This document shows, piece by piece, positions 24,672 through 43,194 of a stretch of 64,000 bases of DNA. The stretch comes from Opitutales bacterium (GTDB lineage: Bacteria > Verrucomicrobiota > Verrucomicrobiia > Opitutales > PNEW01), in the NCBI GenBank assembly GCA_965197745.1, contig CBDANS010000006.1, forward strand, positions 352,001 to 416,000. Direction: 5' to 3'. Both the position numbers and the translations under genes were made by a program. The notes under the pieces are model-generated. The model worked only from the letters and a program-made list of their open reading frames with translations. It was not told where the DNA came from and ran no database searches. Every line of letters begins with the position of its first letter. Position 1 is the stretch's first letter.

Positions 24672-27182
24672 CTATTTTCTATTGAGAGAATAAATAGTAA
24701 GTCGATCCAGGGATTTACTTTTCACCGGAATTATAAAACTGGCAATATACCCCAGGCAAAAACATAGCATGAATCCAATGGCCGAATAGAGGAAAATATT
24801 TACCTCGGTGTATGTCTTGATTAAGAAAAGAATAATTGCACTACCAATCGCGCCTACGAGCGCACCGGGACCATTAGACCGCCGCGTAAATATGCCCAAA
24901 GCAAAAAGACCTCCGAGACCACTTCCGATGAGACCAAGCATGGAAACGAAGAAAAGGGTCACTGATTTTATGTCCATGGTGGCAAACATTATCGCGACAA
25001 TAGTGGCAAAAGCTCCAACCGCTAAGGTAACTAAACGAGCCAGATTCAAGGATCTGTTTTCCGATTTTGATGGGATTAATCGCTGGTAAAAATCCGTTAC
25101 TACCGCGGTGGCAATCGAGTTCATACCACTATCTAGAGTGGACATTGAGACGGCAAAGATTGCTGCAATTACAAGTCCCGCTAAACCAATAGGAATTTTC
25201 TGGGTAATGAACAGCGGATAAATGGCATCATTTTGCATACCCAGGTCGAGAGCGGCAGGGTTACTTTTATAGTAAACATAAAGAGCGGAACCCACGGCGT
25301 ATAAGATAAAGGTTATGGGAAAGACAAGAATGGCATTCATCCATAAACTTTTAGCCGCGGTTTCTTCATCAGTAGTCGTAAGGTAACGTTGGACTATTGC
25401 CTGGTCGGAGGAATAAGCGACAAGCGCTCCGAACGTTGAACCGATTAACATTACCCAGGTATTTCTCATGTCTGAAATGTCACCATCAAGATAAAGCATG
25501 CGAAATTTATCGTCAGCGATACTGGTTTTGATGAAACCGCTGATCCCGCCTTCAATATAAAAGGGGATGATGATCAGGGTAATGACCGCACCAAGAATGA
25601 GAACTACAGCTTGTATAACATCGGTCCATATCACGGCTTCAATACCTCCCAAAACGGTGTAAAAGGTGCTCAACACTCCCATCGAGAGAATGCATACATA
25701 TATATTTAAACCGGTTATGGTGGAAAGTGCGATAGACGGTAAATACAGCACCATGCTGGTTCGCACTAATTGATACAGGATAAACTGCGCGCTACCGTAT
25801 AAACGCACGAAATAATTAAACCGGTATTCGAGGTACTCATAAGCGGTGGTCAAATTCAATCGGCGAAAAAACGGCAGATAGAAAAAAATAATAAATATAG
25901 GGATGAGGGCAAAACAGAGCTTTTGCGGGTACATAAACCAGTCCACGGAATAAACAAGCGCAGGTTGAGAAAAAAAAGTATCCCCACTGAATATCGTGGC
26001 CACAATGCTGAATCCAGCGGCCCACCAGGGGATACGATGTCCGGCCAGAAAGTAGTCTTCCGTTTTCTTCTCTCGTCTGACAAAATAGAAGCCCATGTAA
26101 ACGAGCGCTATCATGTAGAGACCTAAAAAAGCGTAATTTACAAAACCGAAGTCGGCGTTAGCCCCGGCCTCGTGGATCATAACCTGAATCGCACCCGTAC
26201 TTTTTCCAGGACTTATTTCTCCGTTAGGGATGACCACGCCGCCATTCCATGAAACCGCGTTTGTCATAAGTACACCTTGCGGCATTTCCCCTTCTTTTAT
26301 CCACGTGTCAGTAATGGTATGGTAAACTAACAGGTCTTTAGAGAAGGCTGAATCCAATTGATTTTCGAATGATCCGCCGAAGATGATGAGGTGGGATTGG
26401 CCAAATGCAATGTGGGGTGCAGCAGATACAGGTTGTGGCGCATCTTTTATCGGAACCCATTGTTTTTTAAAGGGATAATAGCGGTAGCCGTCCCTCACCG
26501 CAATCATCTCAATTTCGCCATTGTCTTTGAACTTCAGTTCATCGCCTCCGATGAGATAAAAATAATGATCTCGACTGATGTTTTGCCTTACCGCGACCGC
26601 ATTTTTTCGGGCTGAACCGGGCCACGGTTCCAGTTTTTTCCATCCGGCCTCAAGATCTTTTAAGTCCAAGACCCAAAAATTCTTCAACAACGCTAAAGGA
26701 TTCGTCACATCCTGACCTCCAACAAGGTAGAGGGTATCGCCAATAATGTCAGCAGCAGTATAGGCCACAGGCCCGGGCAAAGATGGTAACGGTTCCTGTT
26801 CAATTTTTTGTGTCGATGAATTCCATCTAAGACGAAGAACATCAGTATAACTTCTCTCTGCATCGCGTCCTCCAATGACAATCAAGCTGTCACCGGTACT
26901 AACCGATGCACCGTAAGCAAGGGGTCGGGGCAACTTGAAACCGGTTAACCAAGCTTCATTTTCATTACTCGTCTTCGGCAGCACATAGATAGCATCATGC
27001 CAGCTGTGCCCGTTCCCCTCTCCCAGGGAACTTTCAGAAAAATCCACTCCACCTGCGACGATTAATGTGCCATTACTCACACCGGCATAGGTTCCAGATA
27101 GACCAGCTGGAGCAGGTAACTCGGTTAGTCTTTCCCAGCGAATGACCTCTTGCTGTGGGGTACTACTTAAACTACACCCCAC
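24672..27182 (-). CDS. Kelch/NanM-like beta-propeller fused to a sodium:solute symporter (SiaT-like); the true N-terminus probably extends upstream
   Basis: Kelch repeats (LIVAGG, LIVIGG, LYLVGG, YLIGG, IIFGG) then SSS motifs DYFLAG-IPWWA, TAYEYLEYRF, GGIEAVIWTD, QAIVQRY, MSTLDSG. Confidence 0.88.
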   Translation of the reverse strand: MGCSLSSTPQQEVIRWERLTELPAPAGLSGTYAGVSNGTLIVAGGVDFSESSLGEGNGHSWHDAIYVLPKTSNENEAWLTGFKLPRPLAYGASVSTGDSLIVIGGRDAERSYTDVLRLRWNSSTQKIEQEPLPSLPGPVAYTAADIIGDTLYLVGGQDVTNPLALLKNFWVLDLKDLEAGWKKLEPWPGSARKNAVAVRQNISRDHYFYLIGGDELKFKDNGEIEMIAVRDGYRYYPFKKQWVPIKDAPQPVSAAPHIAFGQSHLIIFGGSFENQLDSAFSKDLLVYHTITDTWIKEGEMPQGVLMTNAVSWNGGVVIPNGEISPGKSTGAIQVMIHEAGANADFGFVNYAFLGLYMIALVYMGFYFVRREKKTEDYFLAGHRIPWWAAGFSIVATIFSGDTFFSQPALVYSVDWFMYPQKLCFALIPIFIIFFYLPFFRRLNLTTAYEYLEYRFNYFVRLYGSAQFILYQLVRTSMVLYLPSIALSTITGLNIYVCILSMGVLSTFYTVLGGIEAVIWTDVIQAVVLILGAVITLIIIPFYIEGGISGFIKTSIADDKFRMLYLDGDISDMRNTWVMLIGSTFGALVAYSSDQAIVQRYLTTTDEETAAKSLWMNAILVFPITFILYAVGSALYVYYKSNPAALDLGMQNDAIYPLFITQKIPIGLAGLVIAAIFAVSMSTLDSGMNSIATAVVTDFYQRLIPSKSENRSLNLARLVTLAVGAFATIVAIMFATMDIKSVTLFFVSMLGLIGSGLGGLFALGIFTRRSNGPGALVGAIGSAIILFLIKTYTEVNIFLYSAIGFMLCFCLGYIASFIIPVKSKSLDRLTIYSLNRK

Positions 27183-27390: not shown

Positions 27391-28254
27391 CTACTCCGTG
27401 CTTTCAAGTGCCGGACTCTCTTGAGTATCGCTATTGTCGGTACCTCTATCAACCGCGTCTTCGTCCCCCTCATAAAACGCTTCGTCATCGAAGAACAGAT
27501 CATCTTCAAGCATAAATTCAATGGGTGGATTGCCATCGTGAATTTCAAATAACCTGTTATCACGGTAGGCTTCACGAACATAGATATAACGGTCGATGGC
27601 GGATTCATCGATGGTCTTAATGGTATCGATATGCCTTGCTCTGGTATTTAAAGATCCCGTCAAGCCAAGGGCAATTCTTACATCATTCTCATTGATGAAT
27701 ATGAGCGGATTTGTAATTGAACTGACAAACCGACTGGGTAAATCCCTAAGCGTAGTCGGTCCTGTCAATGGTATAACAAGATAAGGACCTTCCCCGAATC
27801 CCCATACAGCAAGGGTCTGGCCAAAATCTTCATGGTGCTTTTCCAAACCCATTGAGGTTCCTACGTCAATAATGCCTCCAATTCCTAAAGTTGAATTTAC
27901 GATAAAACGGAGGGAATCCGATACCCCAATATTCAGTTTACCCTGTAATAAATCGTTAACAATGACATTGGGTTCTCCCAGATTACTAAAAAAGTTCGAA
28001 ACCCCAGATTGTACCGGCTGGGGAATGACTTTAACATAAGTTTCCGCAACGGGTTTTAGAATAGCCGTGTCTAATGTATGATTCAAATTATGTATCGGCC
28101 GGTTGATCTTCTCAAGCGGATCACGGTTCTCTTTCACCTGTGCCGTGGTAGCGCAACCCGTGATATAAAAAACCAAAAAGAATAAGAATAATGAAAGAAG
28201 AGTGGAACGATAGAGTTGCCGACCGCCTTCTATGCAACGATTATAACCATACAT
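27391..28254 (-). CDS. mlaA: MlaA/VacJ-family lipoprotein
   Basis: Lipobox ITGC, DPLEKINR, NFFSNL, RFIVNSTLGIGG, EDFGQTLAVWG-GPYLVIP-GPTTLRD. Confidence 0.9.
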   Translation of the reverse strand: MYGYNRCIEGGRQLYRSTLLSLFLFFLVFYITGCATTAQVKENRDPLEKINRPIHNLNHTLDTAILKPVAETYVKVIPQPVQSGVSNFFSNLGEPNVIVNDLLQGKLNIGVSDSLRFIVNSTLGIGGIIDVGTSMGLEKHHEDFGQTLAVWGFGEGPYLVIPLTGPTTLRDLPSRFVSSITNPLIFINENDVRIALGLTGSLNTRARHIDTIKTIDESAIDRYIYVREAYRDNRLFEIHDGNPPIEFMLEDDLFFDDEAFYEGDEDAVDRGTDNSDTQESPALESTE

Positions 28255-28312
28255 GGCGTATAAAAATAGAGGGTAAATAAATTAAGTAATGCCAATAACT
28301 GTTAATGATTGT

Positions 28313-29002
28313 TTATGTCCCTTCTTCTTCCTGCTTTTGCCGGACTTCTTCGACTTTTTCCGTCAATTTAACCAGTAACGATTCGAAACCCTCTTTTTCA
28401 ATAATACTCGTAAACTCCGCCCTTTTCAGCGCAAGGTCGCTAACTCCTTTAACCAGGATATTGACGATTTGCCAATTGTTCTCAAATTGGCGTAATACGT
28501 AGTTAAAACGTGTAGAATCTACTCCATTCCCCCAGTAGAGATCAGAGATCAAAATAACGTTCCCTCGTTGCAGATTTTCTTCTGATACGAATTCGAAATA
28601 TTCGCCCTTATATTTCTTAAACATGGATGCGTAGCGGGAAACTACCACACTGCTGAATTTATCGACAAATAATTTTTTTTCTTCCTCGCTCAAATCTCTC
28701 CAGTATCGACCAACCGTCAAACGTGCGATGTAGGTAATCTGGTGCGTGTTCTTGATGACTGGCTCAAGCCGGTCATAGCGTCCCGCGTAGAGGATCTCGG
28801 GCCCTTCTTTCATAATATCGATCAATGTCGACTGCAATTCATCGACGACAGCGCTGGGATCTTCATTCGACTGCGCATGAAGAGAAGTATGGAATAATAT
28901 ACTCGTGAAGAGACAGATCAGCGGTAAAAAAACAGGCCAGAGAGTCGAAAGATTATGGTCATGATTTGACCTGTCATTTAAATATTCTAAAGATTTGCGC
29001 AC
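28313..29002 (-). CDS. hpnM: Hopanoid-associated MlaC/Ttg2D-family protein HpnM
   Basis: YAGRYDRLEPVI, ARLTVGRYW, WQIVNILVKGVSDLALKRAEF; located in the hpn cluster. Confidence 0.75.
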   Translation of the reverse strand: MRKSLEYLNDRSNHDHNLSTLWPVFLPLICLFTSILFHTSLHAQSNEDPSAVVDELQSTLIDIMKEGPEILYAGRYDRLEPVIKNTHQITYIARLTVGRYWRDLSEEEKKLFVDKFSSVVVSRYASMFKKYKGEYFEFVSEENLQRGNVILISDLYWGNGVDSTRFNYVLRQFENNWQIVNILVKGVSDLALKRAEFTSIIEKEGFESLLVKLTEKVEEVRQKQEEEGT

Positions 29003-29138
29003 CTTCTAGCTTTTTTTATTTTTAAAAACATTTATATCTATAGGAGTAATAATTAAAGCAAATATTCGATCATATAATTACACATGACAATTTTGTAATG
29101 AATATTTTATATTTAATTCATAAATGGAATATTTCATT

Positions 29139-30261
29139 TCATTTAATAACGATGGATTTATAGACTCTGCTTTTCCATTGAGATCGTACCCCCTTCCAAT
29201 AGCGTAAAGCTGAGTGCCAAGTATAAGAGCCCAATTAAGGGCAATGAAAATGCCCAGATCTTTGATCTATGATAAAAATTAAGGGTTGGTAAATAAGTTA
29301 AAAGCATGCCCAGCAAAGCACCGACAGCGAGATACCGAGCAAGCCCTGAAGAAGTAACGAGGATAACGATGGGGACGAAATAGACTAAAACCATGAATGC
29401 GGAAGTCAGGAGTAATAAAACGACCGAATAGCGCAATTGGGTAAAAGCAGTACGTGCTACCATATCCCAAATATCCTGTAAGTTCCGGTATGGTCGAACA
29501 CTACGAACCGATTGAGTTAATCCAATCCATGTTCTATAACCTGATGATTTAACTCGAGAAGCAAGGGAGCAATCGTCGATCAATTCACCTTTAATCGATT
29601 CAAAACCATTAACATTTTCTAATATGGCTGTTTTCATAAGAATACACCCACCGGCAGCGGCAGCCACCCTGGAAGTCGGTGAATTGGCCAACCTGAAGGG
29701 ATACAGTAGTTTGAAGAAATAGACAAAGGCGGGCATTAATAGTTTCTCCCAATAGCTTAACATCGAAGGTGTTACCATCAAGGACATGAAATGTATGTCC
29801 TTATTAATCAAGGTCTCCCGCATTTTATTAACAACTCCCGGGCCCAGTTCAATGTCGGCATCCAGCAATACCGTATAATCCGTATTTATCTCTTTACGCC
29901 CTTGTTCCAAGGCCCAGAGTTTACCCACCCATCCTTCAGGTAGTGGCTGACCGCTTATGATTAGCATGCCTTCTCCGACTTCATTTCGAGCGATGTCAGC
30001 TGTCCCATCCGTTGATTCATCATCAACGAGTATAATATTTATCCCGCTCCCCTGATTGATGACAGATTGAAGCGTGCGTTTAATTACAGCTGTTTCATTG
30101 CGGGCGGGGATAAGTACAGTAACGTCCCCCAGTTCCGGATCAATTTCTGATTCCTGTGCATAAAATATCTCGCCTGTTTTCCATGGTTGCCAGGGTAATA
30201 ATAAAATAACGAACCAAATAAGCAGGGCACTTCCCGCGAGAATAAATGTAAAAGTCTCCAT
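29139..30261 (-). CDS. hpnB: Hopene-associated GT2 glycosyltransferase HpnB, frameshifted near the 3' end (annotated stop at 29158)
   Basis: IPARNE, VDDEST, GWVGKLWAL, DADI, LMPAFVYFFKLLYPF, AAAAGGC, IDDC, WDMVARTAFTQL; the expected tail SALRYWKG...WKSRVY lies in another frame. Confidence 0.8.
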
Positions 30262-30474
30262 CTTGAAAAATAGAATTGATCATTGAACGATCCCTTATGG
30301 TTAGACAAGGATTTGTAGATAAAATCCTAAACTACCTGAGATGAGAATGAGATACTATGCTTATTTATGCAAGGTCCCGTTAGCATTGCTATGCAGTGTC
30401 ACCCTCACCAAATTTTCCCTGGGAAGACTTTTGTCCCCTTTACTCAATGGCAATTGTAATTTGGCCTGGAACGA

Positions 30475-31539
30475 CTAATTAGACTCCACCCCATATTGGA
30501 TGGGAAGTTCCGGAGCCATCGGACCCTCTGTCCTGGGACCCTGAATAAATTTTCTTAATGCTTTAATTGGATGGGCAAAGGTGTCGTTAACAGCAGTGGG
30601 CTCATAACCACAATGGGCCATACAATTAGCACAGCTGGGGTTTTTTCCGGTACCGTATTTATCCCAATTGGTATCTTCCATTAACGACTTAAAATCAGGT
30701 GCGTAACCCTCATCTACCAATAAGTAACAGGGGCGTTGCCACCCAAAAACATTGCGCGTTGGATTTCCCCATGGAGTACAATGATAGGTTTCATTACCTG
30801 CGAGAAATTCAAGAAACAGTGTGGAATGATTAAGTCTCCATTTCCTACCCACACCATTTTTAAATATATCTCTAAAAAGTTGCTTACTCGCATTGCGCTG
30901 CATGAAAACTTCCTGTTGCGGTGCGTGATCATAACTGAATCCGGGTGACATCGTCACGCCTTCGATACCCAGGGTCATTACATAATCGAGGAACTCAGCT
31001 ACTTCAACTCCCGTTTCCCCCTGAAATAGGGTACAGTTAATATTGACACGAAAACCTTTACCAACCGCCAGTTTTATCGCGTCTACCGCCTGGTCAAAGA
31101 CACCCGTCTTGCAAACGGAGGTGTCATGCCGTGCTCGGTTACCATCTAGATGGATAGAAAAAGTCAAATAAGGCGAGGGGGTGTAATCATCTATGCGCTT
31201 TTTAAGCAGCACCGCATTGGTACATAAATAAACAAATTTCTTCTTTTTAATAAAACCACTTACAATATCGGGTAATTCTTTATGTACGAGGGGTTCTCCT
31301 CCGGCAATTGAGATGATGGGGGCTCCGCATTCGTCGATCGCTTCCATACATTCTTTAACCGACATGCGACGGTTGAGAATTTCGTCGGGATAATCTATCT
31401 TACCGCACCCGGCACATGCAAGATTGCAACGGAAGAGCGGTTCGAGCATTAGAACCAGCGGATACCGTTTCTCACGACGGAGTTTCTTACTTATAATATA
31501 ACGTGCTACGCTATATTGTTGACGCAGTGGTACACCCAT
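30475..31539 (-). CDS. hpnH: Adenosyl-hopene transferase, radical SAM
   Basis: YPLVLMLEPLFRCNLACAGCGKI, CTPWG, GWQRPCYLL, CANCMAHCGYE. Confidence 0.95.
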   Translation of the reverse strand: MGVPLRQQYSVARYIISKKLRREKRYPLVLMLEPLFRCNLACAGCGKIDYPDEILNRRMSVKECMEAIDECGAPIISIAGGEPLVHKELPDIVSGFIKKKKFVYLCTNAVLLKKRIDDYTPSPYLTFSIHLDGNRARHDTSVCKTGVFDQAVDAIKLAVGKGFRVNINCTLFQGETGVEVAEFLDYVMTLGIEGVTMSPGFSYDHAPQQEVFMQRNASKQLFRDIFKNGVGRKWRLNHSTLFLEFLAGNETYHCTPWGNPTRNVFGWQRPCYLLVDEGYAPDFKSLMEDTNWDKYGTGKNPSCANCMAHCGYEPTAVNDTFAHPIKALRKFIQGPRTEGPMAPELPIQYGVESN

Positions 31540-31565
31540 TTTTTTTACCTTATTTTGCCATGAAC

Positions 31566-32525
31566 TTAGCTGTCATTTTTTACTAAGCCATTTTTTCTAA
31601 GAGACATAGGCAAGGGGAAAGTGACTCCCTCGGGTTCGCTTTCCATGTCAATTATATTAGAAACACCAAATTGCTGTAGTTTATCGAGAACTTCCTGAAC
31701 AAGCACTTCCGGCGCCGAGGCACCCGCGGTCAAACCCACACGAGGGCTTTTATTAAACCATGATTTATCCAGATCCTCAGCATCTTGTACTAGATAGGCT
31801 TCGAGCCCATTTTTCTCACCGACTTCTCGCAAACGAGTGGAATTGGAACTGTTTCTCGCGCCGACGACTATAAGTAAATCGATATCGTCCATCATTTGTT
31901 TTACTGCCGTCTGCCGATTCTGAGTTGCGTAACAGATATCATCTTTACGCGGACCGCCGATAGCGGGAAATCGCTTTCTCAAAGCATCAATTATCTGTTT
32001 CGTATCATCTATTGAAAGCGTAGTCTGTGTTTCATAAGCTAATTCTGAAGGATTTTTAACTTGGAGTTTTGCCACATCATCAACAGATTCTACAAGGTAT
32101 ATGTTTCCTCCCCATTTCTTGTCATAATGCCCCATCGTTCCATTTACTTCAACATGTCTCTCATGTCCGATGAGAATCACTTCCCGCGCGCTCTTAGCGT
32201 GTCGCTCGACCTGCCGATGAACCTTTGTCACCAATGGGCAAGTGGCATCAATTATATTGAAATTACGCTCACGCGCTTGTTTTGATTTTTCGGTCGCGAC
32301 TCCATGCGCGCTGAATATCAGGTTTGAACCGTGGGGAACATCGTTCAAATCCTCGGTAAATATCGCCCCTCGTGATTTCAGATCTTCAACTACCCTTTGA
32401 TTATGAACAATCTCATGCAAGACGTATACCGGAGGCCCATAAATTTCGAGAGCTCTTTCAACGATTTCAATCGCTCGGTAGACACCTGCGCAGAATCCGC
32501 GCGGCTGTGCTAATACAACATCCAT
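31566..32525 (-). CDS. ispH: 4-hydroxy-3-methylbut-2-enyl diphosphate reductase
   Basis: PRGFCAGV, HEIVHN, FSAHG, DATCPLVTKVH, DICYATQNRQ, NSSNS, TAGASAPE. Confidence 0.96.
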   Translation of the reverse strand: MDVVLAQPRGFCAGVYRAIEIVERALEIYGPPVYVLHEIVHNQRVVEDLKSRGAIFTEDLNDVPHGSNLIFSAHGVATEKSKQARERNFNIIDATCPLVTKVHRQVERHAKSAREVILIGHERHVEVNGTMGHYDKKWGGNIYLVESVDDVAKLQVKNPSELAYETQTTLSIDDTKQIIDALRKRFPAIGGPRKDDICYATQNRQTAVKQMMDDIDLLIVVGARNSSNSTRLREVGEKNGLEAYLVQDAEDLDKSWFNKSPRVGLTAGASAPEVLVQEVLDKLQQFGVSNIIDMESEPEGVTFPLPMSLRKNGLVKNDS

Positions 32526-32766
32526 ATTCGATTAGTATAATACTTTAAAAAAATTCAATATTCAATGTAAGTGACTAATACCTTCACGGTCAATGTTGGA
32601 ATTTCATAAATATATTGAAAGATAATGACTTGACATAAATTATCAGCGAAATGTTATTGAAACACTATTCGAGGTATATAGCAGCTCTGTGCAGAGCGAT
32701 TCAATATAAGTTTTATGCTTTTGGCGTCTTTGTCCTACCCAAAAATTTAACAAGGATAATCCAAAA

Positions 32767-33861
32767 ATGACAGAATCGGCATTAAAATCCGGTCTTCGCT
32801 ATGATGAGGATTCTGCCTCTAAACCTGACTTCTCAAAGTTAAGTGATTTCGAACTTCAGGACTATCTGCTGAAAGGGGTATCACGCACCTTTGCCTTAAC
32901 GATTCCACAATTACCGCATGAATTGCGTTATGCAGTTTCAAACGCTTACCTCTTGTGCCGCATTGTCGACACCATAGAAGACGAACCCGCATTATCGGGT
33001 GATCAAAAAAAACAGTTATGCGAACAGTTTGAAAACGTAATTAGAGGTAAGACGAACCCCGAAGAATTTACTGACGACTTATCAGGATTGCTTTCAAAAG
33101 CTACCATTCCAGAAGAACACGAATTAATTGAATTGACGCCACGTGTCATAAATATCACACGAAGTTTTGATACCGAAATTAGAGAAGCATTGCAACAATG
33201 CGTAAACATCATGACGAGGGGAATGGTGCGATTTCAAATCGATAATCGATCCTTCGGATTGCAGAATTTAAATGAGCTTGATCAATATTGTTACTATGTC
33301 GCAGGCGTTGTCGGTGAAATGTTGACCAGGCTATTTTGTCATTATTCTTCTAATATTGAGAAAAACAGGAATCAGCTTTTAGAATTGGCTGTTTCCTTTG
33401 GGCAAGGACTGCAAATGACAAACATACTTAAAGACATGTGGGAAGACAACAGTCGGTCGGCTTGTTGGCTGCCTCGAGATATCTTCGTCAGTGGAGACTC
33501 CACCCTCCAGAACTTGGAAGCCATACATAAAGATGAAAAATTTTCTGAAGGTTTGAATTACTTAATTGAAATCACCCATGGACATTTAAGTAACGCCCTT
33601 AATTACGTGCTGCTCATTCCGGAAAATGAAAAAGGTATTAGAAAATTTTGTCTTTGGAACATCGGTATGGCTATATTAACCTTGCGAAAAATAAAAAATA
33701 CCCGAAATTTCACTCGCGGTAGGGATGTTAAAATTTCTCGTCTCAGTGTAAAAATGACCATCCTGGCGACGCACTTCACAGTAGGTAATAATCAACTGCT
33801 GAAATTTCTTTTTAGACTTGCGGGGATGCGTCTGCCTATTGCGCTTTCTAAAAATCAATAA
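32767..33861 (+). CDS. Squalene/phytoene synthase-family enzyme (likely single-enzyme squalene synthase)
   Basis: VSRTFAL, YLLCRIVDTIED, YCYYVAGVVG, GLQMTNILKD, VKISR: eukaryote-like/methanotroph SQS-type motifs. Confidence 0.85.
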   Translation: MTESALKSGLRYDEDSASKPDFSKLSDFELQDYLLKGVSRTFALTIPQLPHELRYAVSNAYLLCRIVDTIEDEPALSGDQKKQLCEQFENVIRGKTNPEEFTDDLSGLLSKATIPEEHELIELTPRVINITRSFDTEIREALQQCVNIMTRGMVRFQIDNRSFGLQNLNELDQYCYYVAGVVGEMLTRLFCHYSSNIEKNRNQLLELAVSFGQGLQMTNILKDMWEDNSRSACWLPRDIFVSGDSTLQNLEAIHKDEKFSEGLNYLIEITHGHLSNALNYVLLIPENEKGIRKFCLWNIGMAILTLRKIKNTRNFTRGRDVKISRLSVKMTILATHFTVGNNQLLKFLFRLAGMRLPIALSKNQ

Positions 33862-33938
33862 TAGCCATAATTTATCTTTGCGAAATTATCGCTGCTCAGG
33901 CTTTTTAAAAAAGTTCGAGTGCGATACTCGCCTCTGCG

Positions 33939-35891
33939 ATGAGTGATCCTGTCGAAAACCCTATTGAAGCAGGAATTAACGCCACAAATACTGAATCTCG
34001 GATTGCGTTAATTTCAAAGGCTGTCAGTCACGGGCAAAAAGCACTGATCGATCTGCAAAATCCCGACGGGCACTGGTGTTTTGAATTGGAAGCCGACTGC
34101 ACTATCCCTGCTGAATACATTATAATGATGCATTATATGGACGAAGTGAATGATTCGTTGCAGACTAAAATTGGGGTTTATCTTCGCGATCACCAGATGG
34201 AGGATGGCGGTTGGCCGCTCTATCATGGCGGTACGGGTAATATCAGCTGTTCGGTTAAAGTATACTACGCTTTAAAACTTATAGGCGATAAACCTGACGA
34301 AGATCACATGAGAAGAGCACGCGCTGCTATTTTATCCTGGGGAGGAGCGGCTCGCAGCAATGTTTTTACACGGATCACCCTCGCCTTATTTGAACAGATA
34401 CCGTGGCGCGGTGTTCCCTTCATGCCGGTAGAATGTATGCTTTTCCCGCGCTGGTTTCCTTTCCATATCATGAAGATCTCGTATTGGTCCAGGACGGTTA
34501 TGGTCCCCCTTCTTATTCTCTACCATTATAAACCAAAGGCGAAAAATCCCAACAAAGTTTCAATAACTGAACTCTTTGTCACTCCACCGGATAGAGAAAA
34601 GCATTATTTTCCCCTCCGCTCTTTCTTTAATTTCCTCTTTTACTTTCTCGACAGGTTTGGGATCTTATTCAATCCCCTGATTCCAAAAACTATTCACCAC
34701 CGGGCATTGAAGAAAGCTGAGCACTGGATGATCGAACGCTTGAATGGGTTTGGCGGGTTAGGGGCAATTTTTCCCGCTATGGTAAACGCCTACGAAGCGT
34801 TGGTCTGCCTTGGCTATGCGAAGGACCATCCCTATTGCGTAACTGCGCGCGATGCCATAGATAGACTGCTCGTTGTGGGAAACGACAGGGCCTATTGTCA
34901 GCCATGTATTTCACCGGTTTGGGACACCTCCCTGGCAAGCTTAGCCTTACAGGAATGTGACAGTGCAGAAATTAAAGCCGCCGAGACTCAGGCACTGGAC
35001 TGGCTCAATGAAAGACAGCTCCTGGAAGAGCCAGGGGATTGGCAGGAATACAGACCTTCCTTACCTGGAGGAGGTTGGGCTTTTCAATTACAAAATCCGC
35101 ATTATCCGGATCTTGACGACACTGCGGTAGTTGCTTTTGCGATGTTAAAAAATGAAGCAGGACGGTTCCAGGAACCGGCTAAACGGGCGATTGAATGGAT
35201 TGCGGGTATGCAATCAAAAAACGGAGGCTATGCCTCATTTGATGCTGATAATGACTATTATTATCTAAATGAAATTCCCTTTGCCGATCACGGCGCGCTA
35301 TTAGGTCCGCCGACAAGTGATGTCAGTGCCCGATGCCTAATGTTATTATCGCAATCCCCGTCTTATAAAGATCTATACGAGAAGGCAATACAGTTGTGTC
35401 TCGACTATTTGTATCGGGAACAGGAAGACGATGGCTCCTGGTTTGGGAGATGGGGGACAAATTATATTTATGGCACCTGGTCTGTCCTTATCGCCCTGGA
35501 GCAAGCGAAGATCAGCGCTGAACACTCAAGCATTCAAAAAGCGATAACATGGCTGAATAGCAAACAACGTTCTGATGGAGGATGGGGTGAAAGTAATAAT
35601 TCTTATGCGGATACCAGCACCCGCGGGCAAGCAGCCAGCAGCACATCATTTCAAACAGCCTGGGCACTCTTAGGATTAATGGCCGCGGGTGAAGGTAAAT
35701 CAGAGGCCGTGGAGCGAGGAATTGACTATCTGCTAAAGAAGCAAACCGCAATAGGACTCTGGGATGATGTGGAATTCACAGCGCCCGGGTTTCCCAGGGT
35801 TTTTTATTTAAAGTACCACGGTTATGATAAGTACTTTCCGCTCTGGGCCCTCGCGCGGTATAATAACATTCTTTCAGAACGAAACCTGTGA
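33939..35891 (+). CDS. shc: Squalene-hopene cyclase
   Basis: QW repeats, catalytic YPDLDDTA, SPVWDT, WFGRWGTNYIYGT, GFPRVFYLKYHGY. Confidence 0.96.
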   Translation: MSDPVENPIEAGINATNTESRIALISKAVSHGQKALIDLQNPDGHWCFELEADCTIPAEYIIMMHYMDEVNDSLQTKIGVYLRDHQMEDGGWPLYHGGTGNISCSVKVYYALKLIGDKPDEDHMRRARAAILSWGGAARSNVFTRITLALFEQIPWRGVPFMPVECMLFPRWFPFHIMKISYWSRTVMVPLLILYHYKPKAKNPNKVSITELFVTPPDREKHYFPLRSFFNFLFYFLDRFGILFNPLIPKTIHHRALKKAEHWMIERLNGFGGLGAIFPAMVNAYEALVCLGYAKDHPYCVTARDAIDRLLVVGNDRAYCQPCISPVWDTSLASLALQECDSAEIKAAETQALDWLNERQLLEEPGDWQEYRPSLPGGGWAFQLQNPHYPDLDDTAVVAFAMLKNEAGRFQEPAKRAIEWIAGMQSKNGGYASFDADNDYYYLNEIPFADHGALLGPPTSDVSARCLMLLSQSPSYKDLYEKAIQLCLDYLYREQEDDGSWFGRWGTNYIYGTWSVLIALEQAKISAEHSSIQKAITWLNSKQRSDGGWGESNNSYADTSTRGQAASSTSFQTAWALLGLMAAGEGKSEAVERGIDYLLKKQTAIGLWDDVEFTAPGFPRVFYLKYHGYDKYFPLWALARYNNILSERNL

Positions 35892-36607
35892 AACTGGGAA
35901 TAATCGCAGCTCTGCACGAGGAGATAAAAAGTCTGACCCCTCAGATTATAGAGACCGGAAATTCAGCATGGTTAAAAGATAAAATTTGCATCTTTCATTC
36001 TGGAGTCGGTCGGAATTGCGCTGGCCACGCTGCAAACAGATTAGTTGAACAGGGTGCCTCCGCCTTGCTGAGCTGGGGATGTGCTGCTGGTCTCGACAGG
36101 AAGCTTAAACCGGGAAACCTCCTGCTCCCCGAACGTATCATAAGTAAAGACGGCCGTATTTTTCAGGCCGATGGGGACTGGCATAAAAGGTTTATCAATA
36201 ATTTAGCAGGTAAAGTCAGTATCTACAAGGACGCCCTTGTTGAAAGTGATCAGATAATAACCGATCCGGCGCAAAAAAAAAATCTTTGCACCCAATCACA
36301 AGCAATAGCTGCGGATATGGAAAGTGCGGCAATTGCCGAGGTCGCAGAGAAAAATAAATTGTCTTTTCTCGTAATCAGAGCGATCGCCGATACAAGCAAA
36401 TGTGGAATCCCTAATTGCGTTACGCAATCGCAGGATGGGAGGGGTGAGATAAAAAAATTACTTCTCTTAAAGAATGCGTTTATGCACCCTGCTGATTGGA
36501 TCCCCCTGATCGTGCTTGCACAACAATTTCTGGCAGCGCATAAGACTTTAAAGCAGGTTATATCAAATTCACCGAGTGACTTTTATTGTGAAGAACCCCT
36601 ACGATGA
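35888..36607 (+). CDS. hpnG: Hopanoid-associated nucleosidase/phosphorylase HpnG
   Basis: SGVG, LSWGCAAGL, AADMESAA, IRAIAD; overlaps the shc stop. Confidence 0.8.
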   Translation: MKLGIIAALHEEIKSLTPQIIETGNSAWLKDKICIFHSGVGRNCAGHAANRLVEQGASALLSWGCAAGLDRKLKPGNLLLPERIISKDGRIFQADGDWHKRFINNLAGKVSIYKDALVESDQIITDPAQKKNLCTQSQAIAADMESAAIAEVAEKNKLSFLVIRAIADTSKCGIPNCVTQSQDGRGEIKKLLLLKNAFMHPADWIPLIVLAQQFLAAHKTLKQVISNSPSDFYCEEPLR

Positions 36608-36620
36608 ATGAACGGTTCAG

Positions 36621-37604
36621 ATGACGACTCTTATCACAGGCGCTACTGGTTTTTTAGGTTCTGCTGTCCTCAGGCAATTGATTTCTCACGGCCATCAGGT
36701 TCGCGCATTGGTCCGGGAAAAAAGTGACCGAAGAAATCTTGAAGGCCTGGATGTTGAAATCGTGGTGGGTGATCTCATTAATCGCTCCTCTCTTAGAAGT
36801 GCCTTGAAAAATTGTGATTCATTATTCCATGTGGCAGCAGATTATCGATTGTGGGTTCCGAATCCCCCTGAAATTTACCGCAACAATGTTGACGGCACAC
36901 TTAATCTTATGACCGTCGCTGCCGAACTTGGTGTTAATCGAATAGTCTATACCAGTAGTGTGGCAACATTAGGTTTAAATAAGGATGGAAGCCCTGCCGA
37001 TGAAACGACCCCGGTCTCTTTGGGAGATATGATTGGACATTACAAGCGCTCAAAATTTATGGCTGAACAAGAAGTAGACAGGCTGGTCAAAGAGGAGGGA
37101 TTACCTGTTGTTACGGTTAACCCGTCTACCCCCATCGGTCCCAGGGATATTAAACCAACTCCAACGGGACGAATGATTCTTGACGCGGTGAAAGGCAAGA
37201 TTCCTGTTTACGTCGACACTGGTTTAAATGTAGTCCATGTCGATGATGTCGCGCTTGGGCATCTGCTCGCATTTGCCGAAGGAAAGATTGGTGAACGGTA
37301 CCTCTTAGGTGGTGAGAATATGAGTTTACAAAATATTCTATTAGAAATTTCGAAAATCACGGGACATGCACCACCTCGATTCCAGATTCCCCACAATTTT
37401 ATTTTGCCTCTGGCATATGGAGTTGAATGGATAGCGCGGTTAACACACATCAAGGATCCTCTAGTGACTGTCGATGGCGTGCGATTAGCAAAAAAAAAGA
37501 TGTATTTTTCTACGACAAAAGCTCACCAGGAGTTAGGGTATAATCCAAGGCCAGCGAAAGAAGCAATAGAAGATGCTGTCACCTGGTTTTTAGACCAAGG
37601 ATAA
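36621..37604 (+). CDS. hpnA: Hopanoid-associated NAD-dependent sugar epimerase HpnA
   Basis: TGATGFLG, HVAADYRLW, YTSSVA, YKRSK, NPSTPIGPRDIKPTPTG. Confidence 0.92.
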   Translation: MTTLITGATGFLGSAVLRQLISHGHQVRALVREKSDRRNLEGLDVEIVVGDLINRSSLRSALKNCDSLFHVAADYRLWVPNPPEIYRNNVDGTLNLMTVAAELGVNRIVYTSSVATLGLNKDGSPADETTPVSLGDMIGHYKRSKFMAEQEVDRLVKEEGLPVVTVNPSTPIGPRDIKPTPTGRMILDAVKGKIPVYVDTGLNVVHVDDVALGHLLAFAEGKIGERYLLGGENMSLQNILLEISKITGHAPPRFQIPHNFILPLAYGVEWIARLTHIKDPLVTVDGVRLAKKKMYFSTTKAHQELGYNPRPAKEAIEDAVTWFLDQG

Positions 37605-37681
37605 ATATATGAATATCCTTATTAAAATCAGCAACAGCTTCATTATCTTGACAATAGGTGGGTTCGGAAAATATATACGCT

Positions 37682-38848
37682 ATGAGCAAAATTAAAATTG
37701 CCCTTGTCGGTGTAGGTAATTGCGCCAGCTCACTAGTCCAGGGAATTCACTTTTATCAGGATGATAACCTGGAACGTGCTATCGGGTTAATGCATAGTGA
37801 GATTGGTGACTATAAACCGAATGATATCGAGGTCGTTGCCGCATTTGATATCGATAAAAGAAAGGTAGGCAAAGATGTAAATACCGCTATTTTTGCCGAA
37901 CCGAATTGCACGAAGGTCTTTTGTGGAGATTTACCTCTTTCAGGAATTATGGTGCAAATGGGAAAACTGCTCGATGGGTTTGCCCCCCATATGCAGGAAT
38001 TCAAGGATACACAGACGTTTGTCATATCCGATGAACCCGAACCACCCGATAAAGAAATTGTAGAAATAATCAGAGAATCCGGTGCTGAAATTCTTGTCAA
38101 TTATCTGCCCGTCGGTTCAGAGGAAGCGACACGATTTTATGCCCAATGCGCGTTAGAAGCAGAAGTGGCTTTTATCAATAATATACCGGTCTTTATCGCC
38201 AGCGATCCCGAGTGGGCTAAGAAATTTGCGGATAAAAAACTACCCATTATTGGTGATGATATTAAAGCTCAACTGGGGGCAACAATCACGCATCGGGCGT
38301 TGACTGATTTGTTTAAAAAACGCGGCGTTAAATTGGAGAAAACTTATCAGCTTAATACGGGAGGGAATACGGATTTTCTTAATATGCTCAGTCGCAGCCG
38401 TCTCGCCTCTAAAAAGATTTCAAAAACTGAAGCAGTTCAGTCAGTGACCGCCTGTCGTATGGATGAAGACAGCATCCACATTGGGCCGAGTGATTATGTG
38501 CCATGGCAAAATGACAATAAAATTTGTTTTATCCGCATGGAAGGTCTGCTTTTCGGAAATGTGCCAATGAATCTTGAGCTCCGCCTTTCCGTGGAAGATT
38601 CTCCGAATTCAGCGGGTGTCGCTATCGATGCCATCCGCTGCGCAAAACTAGCCTTGAACCGCGGGCGAGGGGGTATTCTTTACGCACCTTCAGCTTATTT
38701 CTGTAAGCACCCACCACAACAGTTTACCGACGACGAAGCATTTCACATGATGGAAAAATTCATCGTCGAGATGGAAGAAGGTGATCCGGACCATGAAATG
38801 TCTGATCATAGCAGCCGGGAAAGGCAGCCGTCTACAATTACGTGGTAA
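37682..38848 (+). CDS. ino1: myo-Inositol-1(3)-phosphate synthase
   Basis: VGVGNCASSLVQG, NYLPVGSEEA, GDDIKAQLGAT, QLNTGGNTDFLNM, SKKISKT, EDSPNSAG. Confidence 0.93.
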   Translation: MSKIKIALVGVGNCASSLVQGIHFYQDDNLERAIGLMHSEIGDYKPNDIEVVAAFDIDKRKVGKDVNTAIFAEPNCTKVFCGDLPLSGIMVQMGKLLDGFAPHMQEFKDTQTFVISDEPEPPDKEIVEIIRESGAEILVNYLPVGSEEATRFYAQCALEAEVAFINNIPVFIASDPEWAKKFADKKLPIIGDDIKAQLGATITHRALTDLFKKRGVKLEKTYQLNTGGNTDFLNMLSRSRLASKKISKTEAVQSVTACRMDEDSIHIGPSDYVPWQNDNKICFIRMEGLLFGNVPMNLELRLSVEDSPNSAGVAIDAIRCAKLALNRGRGGILYAPSAYFCKHPPQQFTDDEAFHMMEKFIVEMEEGDPDHEMSDHSSRERQPSTITW

Positions 38849-39527
38849 CAGCAAACCGCTTATACCCGTATTTGGGGTTCCTTTAATCGAACGCGTTATC
38901 CGTTCAGCATTGGATGCGGGAGTCGATGAGTTTTTTGTTGTTACCGGCTATCAGAAGGAATATGTCACTTCATTTCTTCACGATTTAGCAAGCCGGCTAA
39001 GCATTTCCATTACTCCTATCTACAATAAGGATTGGGAAAAAGAAAACGGTCTTTCGGTATTGAAAGCAAAAGACTCCATTAACGAGCCCTTTCTCCTGCT
39101 CATGGCTGATCATATATTTGACCCGCTTACCATTCGAGAATTGTTGGAAGTACCGCTTCCGAATGGAGAAATTAATCTGGCCGTTGATAGAGATATCGAC
39201 AATCCCACCGTAAATATGGATGACGTGACCCGCGTAAAAATTGAAAAAGGGAAAATAACGGCCATTGGAAAGGGCCTTTCTGATTATAACGGGTTTGATA
39301 CCGGGATATTCTTGTGCACGCCCGCAATCTTTGAAGCCTTGCAGAAGAGCACTGAAGGGGATAACGATACCACGCTCAGTGGTGGTGTTTGTAAATTAGC
39401 ATCACAGGGTCGTGTGAACGCAGCAGAATTTCATGGTCAATTCTGGATCGATGTCGACGATCCCGAAGCAATCAGGCAGGCAGAGAATATCCTTCTCAAT
39501 TATCTACCGGAAAACTACCAGGAGTGA
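38793..39527 (+). CDS. NTP-transferase, IPCT (CTP:inositol-1-phosphate cytidylyltransferase)/LicC-like
   Basis: IIAAGKGSRL-SKPL, WEKENGLSVL, LLMADH, DDVTRV, DTGIF, WIDVDDPE; overlaps ino1. Confidence 0.75.
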   Translation: MKCLIIAAGKGSRLQLRGNSKPLIPVFGVPLIERVIRSALDAGVDEFFVVTGYQKEYVTSFLHDLASRLSISITPIYNKDWEKENGLSVLKAKDSINEPFLLLMADHIFDPLTIRELLEVPLPNGEINLAVDRDIDNPTVNMDDVTRVKIEKGKITAIGKGLSDYNGFDTGIFLCTPAIFEALQKSTEGDNDTTLSGGVCKLASQGRVNAAEFHGQFWIDVDDPEAIRQAENILLNYLPENYQE

Positions 39528-39736
39528 AGGGCTTCGTTGATTTGTTAAAATGCTAAGTACCCTTTGGGAGCCTATAATATAGGTGAATAAGCAGCCCAAT
39601 TAATATTAAATATGTTGCAATGTAATGAATTGGCCCTTTAGCCTTATCACCTACTGTAAATTGCTTTTATCTTGAGATTTACATATTAGAGAGGGATATC
39701 TGGATTTCGTTTCATTAATTTATATTGGTAATTAAT

Positions 39737-41653
39737 ATGTCGCTTTTAGATCGAATAAAGGATCCGGCTGATGTAAAAGCCCTAACCTTTGACGAACTCT
39801 CTTCTCTTGCCGAAGATATCAGAGCTAAAATTATTGAGGTCACATCGAATAACGGTGGCCATATTGGGCCTAACCTCGGTGTCGTTGAACTCACCTTAGC
39901 ATTGCACCGGGTTTTTGATTCACCCCGTGATAAATTTACCTTTGATGTATCACACCAGGGGTATGTTCATAAATTGCTCACCGGTCGCCAGGGAGAACTG
40001 TTTAAAAATTTGCGGAAAACGGGTGGCGTCAGTGGATTTCTCTCTCGCAGTGAAAGCCCTCACGATAGTTATGGAGCCGGGCATGCCGGGACAGGTTTGT
40101 CCTCGGCCCTGGGAATGGCTGCAGCGAGAGACCTCCGTGGGAGTGATGAGAACGTTGTCGCTATTATTGGAGATGCCGGACTCACATGCGGTATCACAAT
40201 GGAAGCTCTTAATAACATTACCGTCCACACAAAGCGATTGGTAGTTGTGCTTAATGATAACAAGTGGTCTATATCTAAGAATGTAGGCGCCATATCTAAA
40301 TACCTCAATGAGCTGATCACTAATCCGTTTTATAATCAGCTCGACCAGGATGTAAAAGCGTTTCTACGTAAAATACCCGGCGGTGATTCTCTCATTAAGA
40401 TTGGTCGGAAAGCGAAAAAGGACGCCAAGGATTTTATCGTGCCCTCTTCTCTCTTTGAAAAGTATGGGTTACGCTACCTGGGCCCCATTGATGGCAACGA
40501 TCTCGAAAGCCTCATTTATTATCTCGAGTTCTGCAGAAGTTACGAGAAACCCATAGTCTTACACATTCTCACAACGAAGGGCAAGGGCTACGAACCGGCA
40601 ATCGCGGACCCTGAAACATTTCACGGTCCCGGTCCTTTTGAAATAACCACCGGAAAAAGTAAACCGAGCAAAGCGGGAACGCCACCGAAATATCAGGATG
40701 TTTTTGGACAAGCCATGGTTCGCTTTGCCACCAGCGATCCAAAGGTCGTTGGAATCACAGCGGCCATGTCTACGGGTACAAGTTTAAAACTCCTTAACAA
40801 TGAATTACCCGACCAGTTCTTTGATGTGGGAATGGCAGAAGAACACGCCGTATTATTTGCCGCTGGATTGTCTACCCAGGAATTTAAACCTGTTTGCGCA
40901 ATCTATTCGACTATGCTCCAACGTGCTTACGATCCAATAGTCCACGATGTTGGAGTGCAAAATCTTCCGGTCACATTCTGCATGGATAGAGGCGGTCTTT
41001 CACCACAGGATGGACCGACCCATCACGGACTGTTTGATATCGCTTACTTGCGATGTGTTCCAAATTCAATCGTGATGCAACCCAAGGATGAGGACGAATT
41101 GGTCGACATGCTTTGGACCTGCCTGCAAACTGAGCAGCCTACTTTTATGCGTTATCCACGCGGCACGGGAGAAGGAGTCCCTATCAAAAAGGACGCTTCG
41201 CTTCTGAAAATTGGTAAAGCTGAGATTATCAAAAAAGGCAGCGACATCAATATCTGGGCTCTTGGACCCTGGGTAAGTGAAGCGATGAAGCTTTCAGAAA
41301 AACTGGGCGTAGAGGAGGGAATGTCCGTTGGCGTGGTAAACGCGCGATTTGCCAAACCTCTCGATACAAGTCTTCTTCTCGAACAGGCACATGCCAGCCT
41401 GGCTATTATTACAATGGAAGATCATGTTCTGAATGGCGGCTTTGGCAGTGCGGTTCTCGAAGTTCTAAATGAAAACAACTGTCACACTCCAGTGGAAAGA
41501 ATCGGCTGGCCTGATCGATTTATTGATCATGGATCTTCGGTAGATGATTTACGGATCCTTAATGGTTTAGACCTCGAGACACTCTATGACCGTATCTTGA
41601 AGCGTTATAATACATTGAACGCACGAACGGCTAAAGCAGATCTCTTCCGTTAA
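39737..41653 (+). CDS. dxs: 1-deoxy-D-xylulose-5-phosphate synthase
   Basis: GGHIGPNLGVVELT, DVSHQGYVHK, GD...NDN TPP motif, AEEHAV, DGPTHHG. Confidence 0.96.
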   Translation: MSLLDRIKDPADVKALTFDELSSLAEDIRAKIIEVTSNNGGHIGPNLGVVELTLALHRVFDSPRDKFTFDVSHQGYVHKLLTGRQGELFKNLRKTGGVSGFLSRSESPHDSYGAGHAGTGLSSALGMAAARDLRGSDENVVAIIGDAGLTCGITMEALNNITVHTKRLVVVLNDNKWSISKNVGAISKYLNELITNPFYNQLDQDVKAFLRKIPGGDSLIKIGRKAKKDAKDFIVPSSLFEKYGLRYLGPIDGNDLESLIYYLEFCRSYEKPIVLHILTTKGKGYEPAIADPETFHGPGPFEITTGKSKPSKAGTPPKYQDVFGQAMVRFATSDPKVVGITAAMSTGTSLKLLNNELPDQFFDVGMAEEHAVLFAAGLSTQEFKPVCAIYSTMLQRAYDPIVHDVGVQNLPVTFCMDRGGLSPQDGPTHHGLFDIAYLRCVPNSIVMQPKDEDELVDMLWTCLQTEQPTFMRYPRGTGEGVPIKKDASLLKIGKAEIIKKGSDINIWALGPWVSEAMKLSEKLGVEEGMSVGVVNARFAKPLDTSLLLEQAHASLAIITMEDHVLNGGFGSAVLEVLNENNCHTPVERIGWPDRFIDHGSSVDDLRILNGLDLETLYDRILKRYNTLNARTAKADLFR

Positions 41654-41778: not shown

Positions 41779-42234
41779 CTATTGGGCGGTTATGGTGATA
41801 ATTTTAGGATCAGAATCGAGAATGAATTTGGCGTCCTCAAAGTCCGGTGGACTAAACAGTGGTTTGGCATCATTAGAGAATCCGTAGCGTTCTCTGAAAA
41901 TTATAAACAACAGCCCTTTATTAAATTTGTCGTCATTGTTTTCGTCATGAAAAAGGGCAATCGCGTATTCATCCCGAGGGAGTTCAGTAAATTGTGCTAT
42001 TGCTTTTTTCTCGCTGGGTTTAATGACCCTACTTCGAAATTCTTTGCCCCTCATGCAAAAAGTATCACTGGAATTATAGAGCGCTATTCTCACTGAACCA
42101 TTATTATTTTTTAATCTGAGGACATTAATTTTATTTGTCCCGTTTTTCATCTCTGGTCTCTTTGCCTCTTCACTTGAAAGCATGCAGTTCACACTTACTA
42201 AACTTAAAACTATTTGGATGAGGATTTTTCGCAT
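41779..42234 (-). CDS. DUF2141-family protein
   Basis: GSVRIALYNS, YAIALFHDEN, ERYGFSNDA, PPDFEDAKF. Confidence 0.8.
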   Translation of the reverse strand: MRKILIQIVLSLVSVNCMLSSEEAKRPEMKNGTNKINVLRLKNNNGSVRIALYNSSDTFCMRGKEFRSRVIKPSEKKAIAQFTELPRDEYAIALFHDENNDDKFNKGLLFIIFRERYGFSNDAKPLFSPPDFEDAKFILDSDPKIITITAQ

Positions 42235-43132: not shown

Positions 43133-43194
43133 TGGGTCCGTTGGCATTTTGCAAAATACTGAACATTATATTAACTCTATAAATCGAAACTCTC

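Follow-up and report, generated by a model that had tools for sequence, protein, structure and literature searches.

A 64,000-nucleotide (nt) window from a marine Opitutales bacterium (genome G000, 4.45 Mb, 92% complete, 44% GC; positions 352001 to 416000 of contig CBDANS010000006.1, here C6) holds, to judge from its protein families, a genuine hopanoid gene cluster, a putative operon with built-in genes for CDP-inositol synthesis. These genes encode a myo-inositol-phosphate synthase (Ino1) and a stand-alone CTP:inositol-1-phosphate cytidylyltransferase (IPCT). A third candidate component, encoded elsewhere on the contig, is a CDP-alcohol phosphotransferase of the type called "long" below, that is, resembling AF2299 of Archaeoglobus fulgidus and carrying an IPCT-like N-terminal domain. 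All of these enzyme families are known; what is new is that CDP-inositol genes and an AF2299-like transferase with a dead domain are repeatedly coupled to hopanoid genes. We tentatively read the locus, with a confidence a little short of even, as a CDP-inositol branch in a hopanoid gene cluster, in which the transferase would move phospho-inositol to a membrane alcohol of the hopanoid pathway.

Genes for CDP-inositol inside a hopanoid locus

Gene identities were assigned by open reading frame (ORF) calling and searches of two family libraries (Pfam and NCBIfam, with curated cut-offs); coordinates given without a contig or locus name are window positions. The plus-strand order is sqs-shc-hpnG-hpnA-ino1-IPCT-dxs, and the divergent arm reads ispH-hpnH-hpnB-hpnM-mlaA. 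All names and the order of both arms had been given in an initial annotation of this DNA and were confirmed by ORFs, Pfam, and NCBIfam, as were, from the DNA itself, the spacing of hpnA and ino1 and the overlap of ino1 with the IPCT gene. Exactly 77 nt separate the hpnA stop from the ino1 ATG at 37682, and a weak scan predicted no promoter-like or terminator-like site on the plus strand of this interval. The ino1 gene (37682-38848, plus strand) matches PF01658 (121.9 bits) and, over the full profile, TIGR03450 (449.5 bits, below the cut-off of 638). The IPCT gene (38793-39527, plus strand) starts with an ATG within the final 56 nt of ino1, with the stretch GAAGGTGA 9 nt before the start, and ends 209 nt before the dxs ATG at 39737.

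IPCT has 244 residues and an intact P-loop, IIAAGKGSRL. Among solved structures it is closest, at full length in both cases, to A. fulgidus IPCT (2xme, E = 4e-24, residues 1-232) and to the IPCT half of 4mnd (E = 9e-24). It scores 144.5 bits against NF041135, over the IPCT half only; that the cut-off of 580 is not reached is expected, because this model describes a bifunctional enzyme and IPCT here stands alone. By homology, Ino1 would make inositol phosphate from glucose-6-phosphate and IPCT would convert it with CTP to CDP-inositol, and the earlier assignment of this chemistry to the pair holds on the strength of the 2xme match and of the pairing of the two genes in other genomes.

That pairing was surveyed by scanning one genome per species and examining as loci the best 80 of 330 IPCT relatives. 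These 80 are 45 to 81% identical to IPCT and come from many phyla, mainly from marine sediment, seep, and vent metagenome-assembled genomes (MAGs), with Nitrospinota, Desulfobacterales, Gamma- and Zetaproteobacteria, Planctomycetota, and ANME-1 among the taxa. Ino1, 66 to 90% identical, is encoded immediately upstream of IPCT in 62 of the 80 loci; the two genes overlap in 34 of these 62 and lie no more than 50 nt apart in 19 more. Such a wide spread, together with such tight spacing, suggests a compact, horizontally moving unit that would make CDP-inositol. In most loci (61/80) IPCT comes with a DIPPS-like transferase fused or joined to it, an arrangement called the "fused" type below; these transferases form one clade in our tree (62 rows including the Opitutales genome G028, support 97), and hopanoid genes occur in the locus DNA of none of the 61.

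Within the family of the Opitutales bacterium, represented by four genomes (G000 to G003, with G001 standing for a sister genus, loci L022 and L207), G001 and G002 share the order hpnA-ino1-IPCT-dxs, while the G003 contig begins inside ino1 and continues with IPCT and dxs in the same order. This synteny says little alone, because the genomes are kin.

Two variants of the pair were observed. In a Nitrospinaceae MAG (L060:8891-10792, plus strand), ino1 and IPCT form one ORF of ~630 residues beside a divergent long transferase gene, which would be a natural Ino1-IPCT fusion. In G028, the Ino1 match (L026:10340-11005, ~220 residues) runs over two frames beside a fused IPCT/DIPPS gene and a DUF4202/HD gene, and may represent a broken gene or an assembly error.

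A long transferase with a degenerate IPCT-like domain

No CDP-alcohol phosphotransferase is encoded within the window. A search of the whole genome, as had been proposed with the initial annotation, found three: a PgsA-like protein, a PssA-like protein, and an AF2299-like candidate of 420 residues (C6:325642-326901), whose gene is located 64 kb upstream of ino1, beyond the edge of the window. The 420-residue protein matches PF01066 (52.2 bits, cut-off 22), has an intact DGxDGxxAR...GxxxDxxxD motif, and contains the stretch DGVDGELARLTFGETPFGAKLDITCD. Over its membrane half it resembles the DIPPS part of NF041135 (66.6 bits), archaetidylinositol-phosphate synthase, and PIP synthase (53.6 bits, cut-off 170), with all scores below cut-offs. 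Its best solved relative is AF2299 (4o6m, E = 1e-18), ahead of IPCT-DIPPS. Residues 13-215 align with the whole IPCT profile (hhalign with a profile of 53 long transferases, 96.4%, E = 1.1e-9), and this N-domain is without the glycine loop, having LLLLTPTPPTH in its place. Six hydrophobic segments span residues 244-414, with no C-terminal extension. The AlphaFold model (pLDDT 87.7, pTM 0.87) places the helices at 241-419 and matches both AF2299 and 4mnd full length (E ~3e-10). Judged by sequence and predicted fold, the protein is an IPCT/DIPPS-type enzyme with a putatively no longer catalytic cytidylyltransferase domain; having lost the nucleotide-binding loop, it would depend on a separate IPCT in trans.

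This protein is the only DIPPS-like enzyme of the genome, and in the tree it lies outside the fused clade. It belongs to a five-member clade (support 99) with the G001 orthologue and the proteins of an Opitutales locus (L044), the Nitrospinaceae locus L060, and a marine contig (L121); in the last three, the transferase gene adjoins ino1-IPCT divergently. Of 41 Opitutales genomes, the same 6 encode both IPCT (E < 1e-60) and a DIPPS- or AF2299-like transferase, and the others encode neither. Of 121 Zetaproteobacteria genomes, 15 encode a long transferase; all 15 encode IPCT as well, within ~3 kb in 10 cases. Elsewhere in the phylum, none of 250 other Verrucomicrobiota genomes at least 85% complete has a long transferase at E ≤ 1e-20 (up to 7 candidates scored per genome).

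The IPCT/DIPPS pathway of (hyper)thermophiles (A. fulgidus AF0263; 2xme, 4mnd; NF041135) likewise proceeds from Ino1 through IPCT to CDP-inositol and employs a transferase of the same superfamily and fold. Here, in contrast, IPCT is separate, the transferase belongs to another, hopanoid-linked family, its IPCT-like domain is apparently inactive, its gene lies 64 kb off, the host is a marine Opitutales, and both proteins stay far below the NF041135 cut-off. AF2299 (4o6m, 4o6n, 4q7c), the best match in both sequence and fold, shares the cytidylyltransferase-like N-domain, six helices, and full motif. It differs in being only 19 to 21% identical in structural alignment and in having no hopanoid context; moreover, it was crystallised with CDP-glycerol and, according to the passages of PMC4634129 that deal with it, does not act on lipids. 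The PIP synthase route of Actinobacteria and Bacteroides (CDP-diacylglycerol plus inositol-1-phosphate) also uses the Ino1 product and a six-helix CDP-alcohol phosphotransferase, and PIP synthases are the next-best matches of the 420-residue protein. That route needs no IPCT, whereas the transferase here is strictly accompanied by a dedicated IPCT.

A second clade of long transferases (L024:4037-6268 of G003; L126, L159, L164, and L181) keeps DGVDGKLAR and has a conserved non-canonical GE[LVF]EH[IV][FL]D instead of GxxxDxxxD. Its members are accompanied by a radical SAM gene of the Tes/MoaA-like kind and by another long transferase, which has the canonical motif.

The long transferase keeps company with hopanoid genes

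In the sister genus (G001), the transferase orthologue is followed after 53 nt by a bona fide HpnL gene (288 bits, cut-off 195.65) and then by two genes for HpnA-like short-chain dehydrogenases/reductases (SDRs). HpnL likewise follows the long transferase in G003, and G020 has a cluster made up of the long transferase, an HpnA-like SDR, HpnL, DUF2141, and a Tes/MoaA-like radical SAM gene. Two Mariprofundus-type loci read hpnG-hpnN-hpnA-hpnL-radical SAM-...-<long transferase-ino1-IPCT, with shc just upstream on the same contig.

An alignment scan for long transferases yielded 80 metagenome loci, many of them short (25 are at least 10 kb), in which hpn genes were called by tblastn and NCBIfam. 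Genes of the hpn set adjoin the long transferase in 16 of the 80, and in 10 of the 25 longer loci. Fifteen of the 16 positive loci contain at least one of HpnL, HpnN, HpnM, and HpnH over cut-off, or an almost complete shc match; the remaining one (L192) has HpnL over cut-off and an end-truncated HpnN at 688.7 bits (cut-off 751.85). One order recurs, hpnN-mlaA-<hpnL-transferase, and MlaA homologues stand beside hpnN-hpnL-long transferase in 7 of the 80 loci. In L169, a single strand with minimal gaps encodes transferase-B12 radical SAM-IPCT-hpnH-sqs-...-flippase-like-outer-membrane factor-RND pump, and ino1 is divergent. The GC content of the positive loci, 43 to 69%, indicates that several lineages are involved; ino1, IPCT, and the long transferase were joined to hpn genes independently in Zetaproteobacteria and in a soil-type contig.

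The distribution of squalene-hopene cyclase (Shc) follows the same line. Among the Zetaproteobacteria, Shc is encoded by 14 of the 15 genomes with a long transferase (the one lacking it is a 1.4-Mb assembly) versus 7 of the 106 without one; the Fisher P value of 2e-12 overstates the case, because these genomes are related. Only 3 of the 13 Zetaproteobacteria with solely the fused type have Shc. For the Opitutales, the figures are 5/5 for long-type genomes and 9/36 for the others, and G028, of the fused type, has none. The L044 genome encodes HpnH, and the L060 genome both Shc and HpnH.

The neighborhood proposed in the initial annotation, hopanoid genes next to the ino1-IPCT pair, did not prove to be general, as 77 of the 80 IPCT-anchored loci are not adjacent to hpn genes. 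It stands for the long-transferase subtype, which both adjacency and co-occurrence link to hopanoid genes in several unrelated lineages.

Two further gene families were observed near long transferases. DUF2141 genes (41779-42288; L208:18413-18928; L024:6272-6772) lie beside transferase, hpnL, or radical SAM genes in three Opitutales lineages: in G003 the gene directly precedes the second long transferase, and in G020 it is flanked by hpnL and the radical SAM gene. The one in the window is on the minus strand and encodes a secreted protein (PF09912, 96 bits); none was seen in the Zetaproteobacteria or the metagenome loci. A pair of HpnA-like SDR genes (G000:C6:323500-325497, L109:9501-11497) adjoins the long transferase in G000, G001, and G020. 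One of the two proteins scores 142 bits against the HpnA model, and such SDRs could modify the cyclitol or the acceptor.

Candidate acceptors and products

In the hopanoid pathway that we favor, Ino1 and IPCT would, by homology, supply CDP-inositol, and the 420-residue enzyme, as its co-occurrence with IPCT and its architecture suggest, would consume it. The recurrent linkage to hopanoid genes points to the hydroxyl of a hopanoid-pathway membrane alcohol as the recipient of phospho-inositol, most likely the terminal hydroxyl of bacteriohopanetetrol, which HpnH and HpnG would make. The product would carry a phosphodiester-linked inositol head group; flippase-like HpnL may then flip it, and HpnN may export it with HpnM and MlaA. 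An HpnN-like gene was found at C6:509496-512132 (909 residues aligned with a bona fide HpnN at 38% identity), answering a search suggested with the initial annotation, and next to it lies the only HpnL gene of the genome (C6:512231-513175; 288 bits, cut-off 195.65). The proposed system in G000 is scattered over three places on one contig and has fewer components than in the relatives.

The established head-group route via HpnI, HpnK, and HpnJ had been reported as missing from the window. This is correct, and it extends to the 92%-complete genome, where none exceeds its cut-off (best scores, HpnI 30.1 against 310 and HpnJ 21.2 against 577.6; no HpnK match, cut-off 232.6); the absence was counted in favor of a CDP-inositol-derived hopanoid. 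The two routes have in common the polar head-group decoration of extended hopanoids and an encoding in or near hpn clusters. They differ in chemistry: glycosyl transfer, deacetylation, and radical ring contraction in the known one, a CDP-inositol phosphodiester in the one proposed here.

Several observations weigh against transfer to a hopanoid. The transferase and its G001 orthologue share only 53% identity, in contrast to 85 to 90% for the flanking DNA, and in G000 the enzyme is encoded outside the hopanoid locus and without the hpnL neighbor seen in G001 and G003. Nine of the 14 Shc-positive Opitutales genomes have no such module, loci L044, L060, and L121 show no hpn gene in their DNA, and the co-occurrence counts, drawn from related genomes, may reflect few evolutionary events. 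Finally, as far as the relevant sections of PMC4634129 go, AF2299 and the A. fulgidus DIPPS do not process lipids, lipid-acceptor enzymes have 3 to 4 extra helices, and the six-helix form goes with soluble acceptors.

So far, the six-helix architecture has been found only in enzymes that act on soluble acceptors, which keeps a solute in play as the product. In that case, a soluble phospho-alcohol, either inositol-1-phosphate or glycerol phosphate, would be condensed with CDP-inositol, the product would be di-myo-inositol phosphate or a compatible solute of the glycerophospho-inositol type, and the hopanoid neighbors would reflect a shared stress or pressure response. Both of the nearest characterized systems, IPCT/DIPPS and AF2299, act on soluble acceptors and share the six-helix build (PMC4634129, as far as cited above), and the IPCT domains of the fused cassette, which predominates in genomes from marine sediments, seeps, and vents, are 45 to 66% identical to IPCT. 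In cold hadal Thaumarchaeota, the fused IPCT/DIPPS cassette is transcribed and is interpreted, in the part of PMC7265257 that concerns it, as serving di-myo-inositol-phosphate synthesis and as a pressure adaptation. Yet the 420-residue transferase belongs to a clade other than that of the fused DIPPS-like enzymes, and the linkage of the long clade to shc and to lipid flippase and exporter genes is left unexplained by a solute pathway. The fused clade has no such link (0/61 loci; Shc in 3/13 Zetaproteobacteria), and no DUF4202/HD or extra IMPase gene lies beside the transferase here. We consider a solute unlikely.

A second alternative keeps a lipid product and changes the acceptor: a Kennedy-type transfer to diacylglycerol, ceramide, or an ether lipid, giving, e.g., phosphatidylinositol, which would be co-regulated, flipped, and exported with hopanoids. 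A route of this kind has been proposed, though not confirmed, for the Bacteroides vulgatus/Prevotella cluster, where the description in PMC9246714, in so far as it covers these genes, has myo-inositol-phosphate synthase, an NTP transferase, and a CDP-alcohol transferase acting via CDP-inositol. An LPG-synthase-TM gene, flippase-like and similar to HpnL, lies near both Bacteroides inositol-lipid clusters (PMC9246714, same description), and our HpnL family search matches B. thetaiotaomicron below cut-off. That cluster, compared with ours by description only, is unlike it in having a HAD hydrolase, in making (or being proposed to make) phosphatidylinositol and inositol sphingolipids, and in occurring in hosts without hopanoids (PMC9246714, likewise); no HAD gene was seen beside ino1-IPCT or the transferase. 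FabF, an LtaS-like enzyme, an MsbA-like ABC transporter, and TrhA flank L060 and L044, which would suit a general lipid. Such a product would not, in contrast, lead one to expect the near-exclusive occurrence in shc-positive genomes (14/15 Zetaproteobacteria, 5/5 long-type Opitutales), nor would it account for IPCT lying between the transferase-radical SAM pair and hpnH-sqs in L169. The transferase also lacks extra membrane helices for a bulky acceptor. A non-hopanoid inositol lipid therefore appears rather improbable, though it deserves to be kept in view.

The initial annotation had suggested an inositol head group for a hopanoid or for a co-regulated lipid. The hopanoid connection of the long-transferase subtype upholds this in part.

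Composition and mosaicism of the locus

The plus-strand arm opens with a squalene-synthase-like SQS_PSY enzyme (32767-33861; PF00494, 182.7 bits; TIGR01559, 133 bits, below the cut-off of 287), followed by Shc (33939-35891; TIGR01507, 827.9 bits, cut-off 431.1). A probable HpnG, the hopanoid-associated phosphorylase/nucleosidase (35888-36607), overlaps shc by 4 nt and matches PF01048 and TIGR03468 (155.3 bits, below the cut-off of 187.1). Next comes HpnA, a hopanoid-associated SDR or "sugar epimerase" (36621-37604; TIGR03466, 498.7 bits, cut-off 367.65). Beyond ino1 and IPCT, the arm continues with Dxs of the methylerythritol phosphate (MEP) pathway (39737-41653; TIGR00204, 719 bits). On the minus strand lie IspH, also of the MEP pathway (31566-32525; NF002188, 477 bits); HpnH, the radical SAM adenosyl-hopene transferase (30475-31539; TIGR03470, 546.7 bits, cut-off 225); an HpnB-like GT2 glycosyltransferase (29158-30261; TIGR03469, 369.6 bits, slightly below the cut-off of 379.25); HpnM, an MlaC-like periplasmic lipid shuttle (28313-29002; TIGR03481, 198.7 bits, cut-off 160.1); and an MlaA-family outer-membrane lipoprotein (27391-28254; PF04333, 235 bits), which is of the "HpnS" type as that name is used in the pertinent part of bioRxiv 2025.07.29.667474. 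The dxs and ispH genes are the sole copies found in the genome (tblastn, with no paralogue of ispH), and the locus thus contains housekeeping MEP genes.

The locus is a mosaic. Nucleotide identity to G001 is 95 to 98% for hpnB-hpnH-ispH, 65 to 75% for mlaA-hpnM, 64 to 74% for sqs-shc-hpnG-hpnA, 87% for ino1, 77% for IPCT and dxs, and 85 to 90% for the flanks, which suggests recombination with different donors inside the locus; at the protein level, Dxs is 85% identical to that of G001 and 82% to that of G003. Two genes that lie between dxs and DUF2141 in G003, one for a radical SAM protein and one for a second long transferase, are missing from G000, G001, and G002. G000 contains no orthologue of the radical SAM partner observed in G003, G020, and the Zetaproteobacteria; the best match there (37% over 108 residues) is probably MoaA.

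These features bear on a last alternative, in which a mobile ino1-IPCT unit landed by chance between hpnA and dxs in the family ancestor, the in-locus transferases then disappeared, and today the pair either provides inositol and nothing more or is being lost. The missing radical SAM and second transferase genes in three of the four genomes, the lack of hpnL beside the remaining transferase of G000, the mosaic identity, and the absence of the module from all 250 other Verrucomicrobiota sampled are in keeping with it. Against decay speak the intact state of ino1, IPCT, and the distant transferase, an ino1-IPCT overlap typical of the spacing at other loci (34/62 overlapping, 19 at no more than 50 nt), and the retention of the arrangement in all four family genomes; independent junctions with hpn genes in Zetaproteobacteria and in contigs of 43 to 69% GC argue against chance. 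We regard such a remnant as very improbable.

PhyH dioxygenase genes lie beside the locus and, in G020, between IPCT and ino1; they were considered as pathway members and dropped in view of dozens of genome paralogues. The two at 42380-44061 are probably unrelated to the locus. The PhyH family is greatly expanded in G000, with dozens of tblastn matches and a tandem array of ~20 genes at C6:1479000-1500000. On the other side of the locus, 24672-27182 (minus strand) encodes an 836-residue fusion of a Kelch/NanM-like beta-propeller and a sodium:solute symporter, with more than 20 full or partial paralogues in the genome.

Implications

A 2025 survey of alphaproteobacteria, in the section consulted here, calls the functions of hpnA, hpnB, hpnL, and hpnM unknown (PMC12583986). 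A microsynteny survey of shc names hpnL, hpnM, MlaA-like hpnS, and hpnT among its genes, and the portion of its text available to us makes no mention of inositol (bioRxiv 2025.07.29.667474). Both surveys still list HpnL and HpnA-like proteins as being of unknown function. In the papers searched, we found no link between hopanoids and inositol or between hopanoids and CDP-alcohol transferases; the preprint's table of neighboring families (Table S8) could bear on this point.

Taken together, the locus points, on sequence grounds, to a substantial chance of a new hopanoid head group. A broader proposition, which we hold to be possible but doubtful, is that hopanoid producers of several phyla make a bacteriohopanepolyol with phosphodiester-linked inositol, in Kennedy style from CDP-inositol, through an AF2299-like transferase with a non-catalytic IPCT-like module. 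HpnL would then be the flippase for head-group-modified hopanoids, and the Opitutales locus a minimal marine version of the system.

Hopanoids count among the major lipids of bacterial membranes and serve as key biomarkers in geology, and their polar derivatives trace organisms and environments. A phosphate-linked inositol hopanoid would escape the standard work-ups, which involve acetylation or periodate cleavage. If the proposed pathway is true, a phosphate-linked inositol head group would constitute a new hopanoid class, HpnL and perhaps the HpnA-like SDRs would gain their first concrete context, and the archaeal-type CDP-inositol chemistry of heat-stress solutes would have been re-used for membrane lipids. 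Even with a solute or a phosphatidylinositol-type product, the strict association with hopanoid producers would need explaining.

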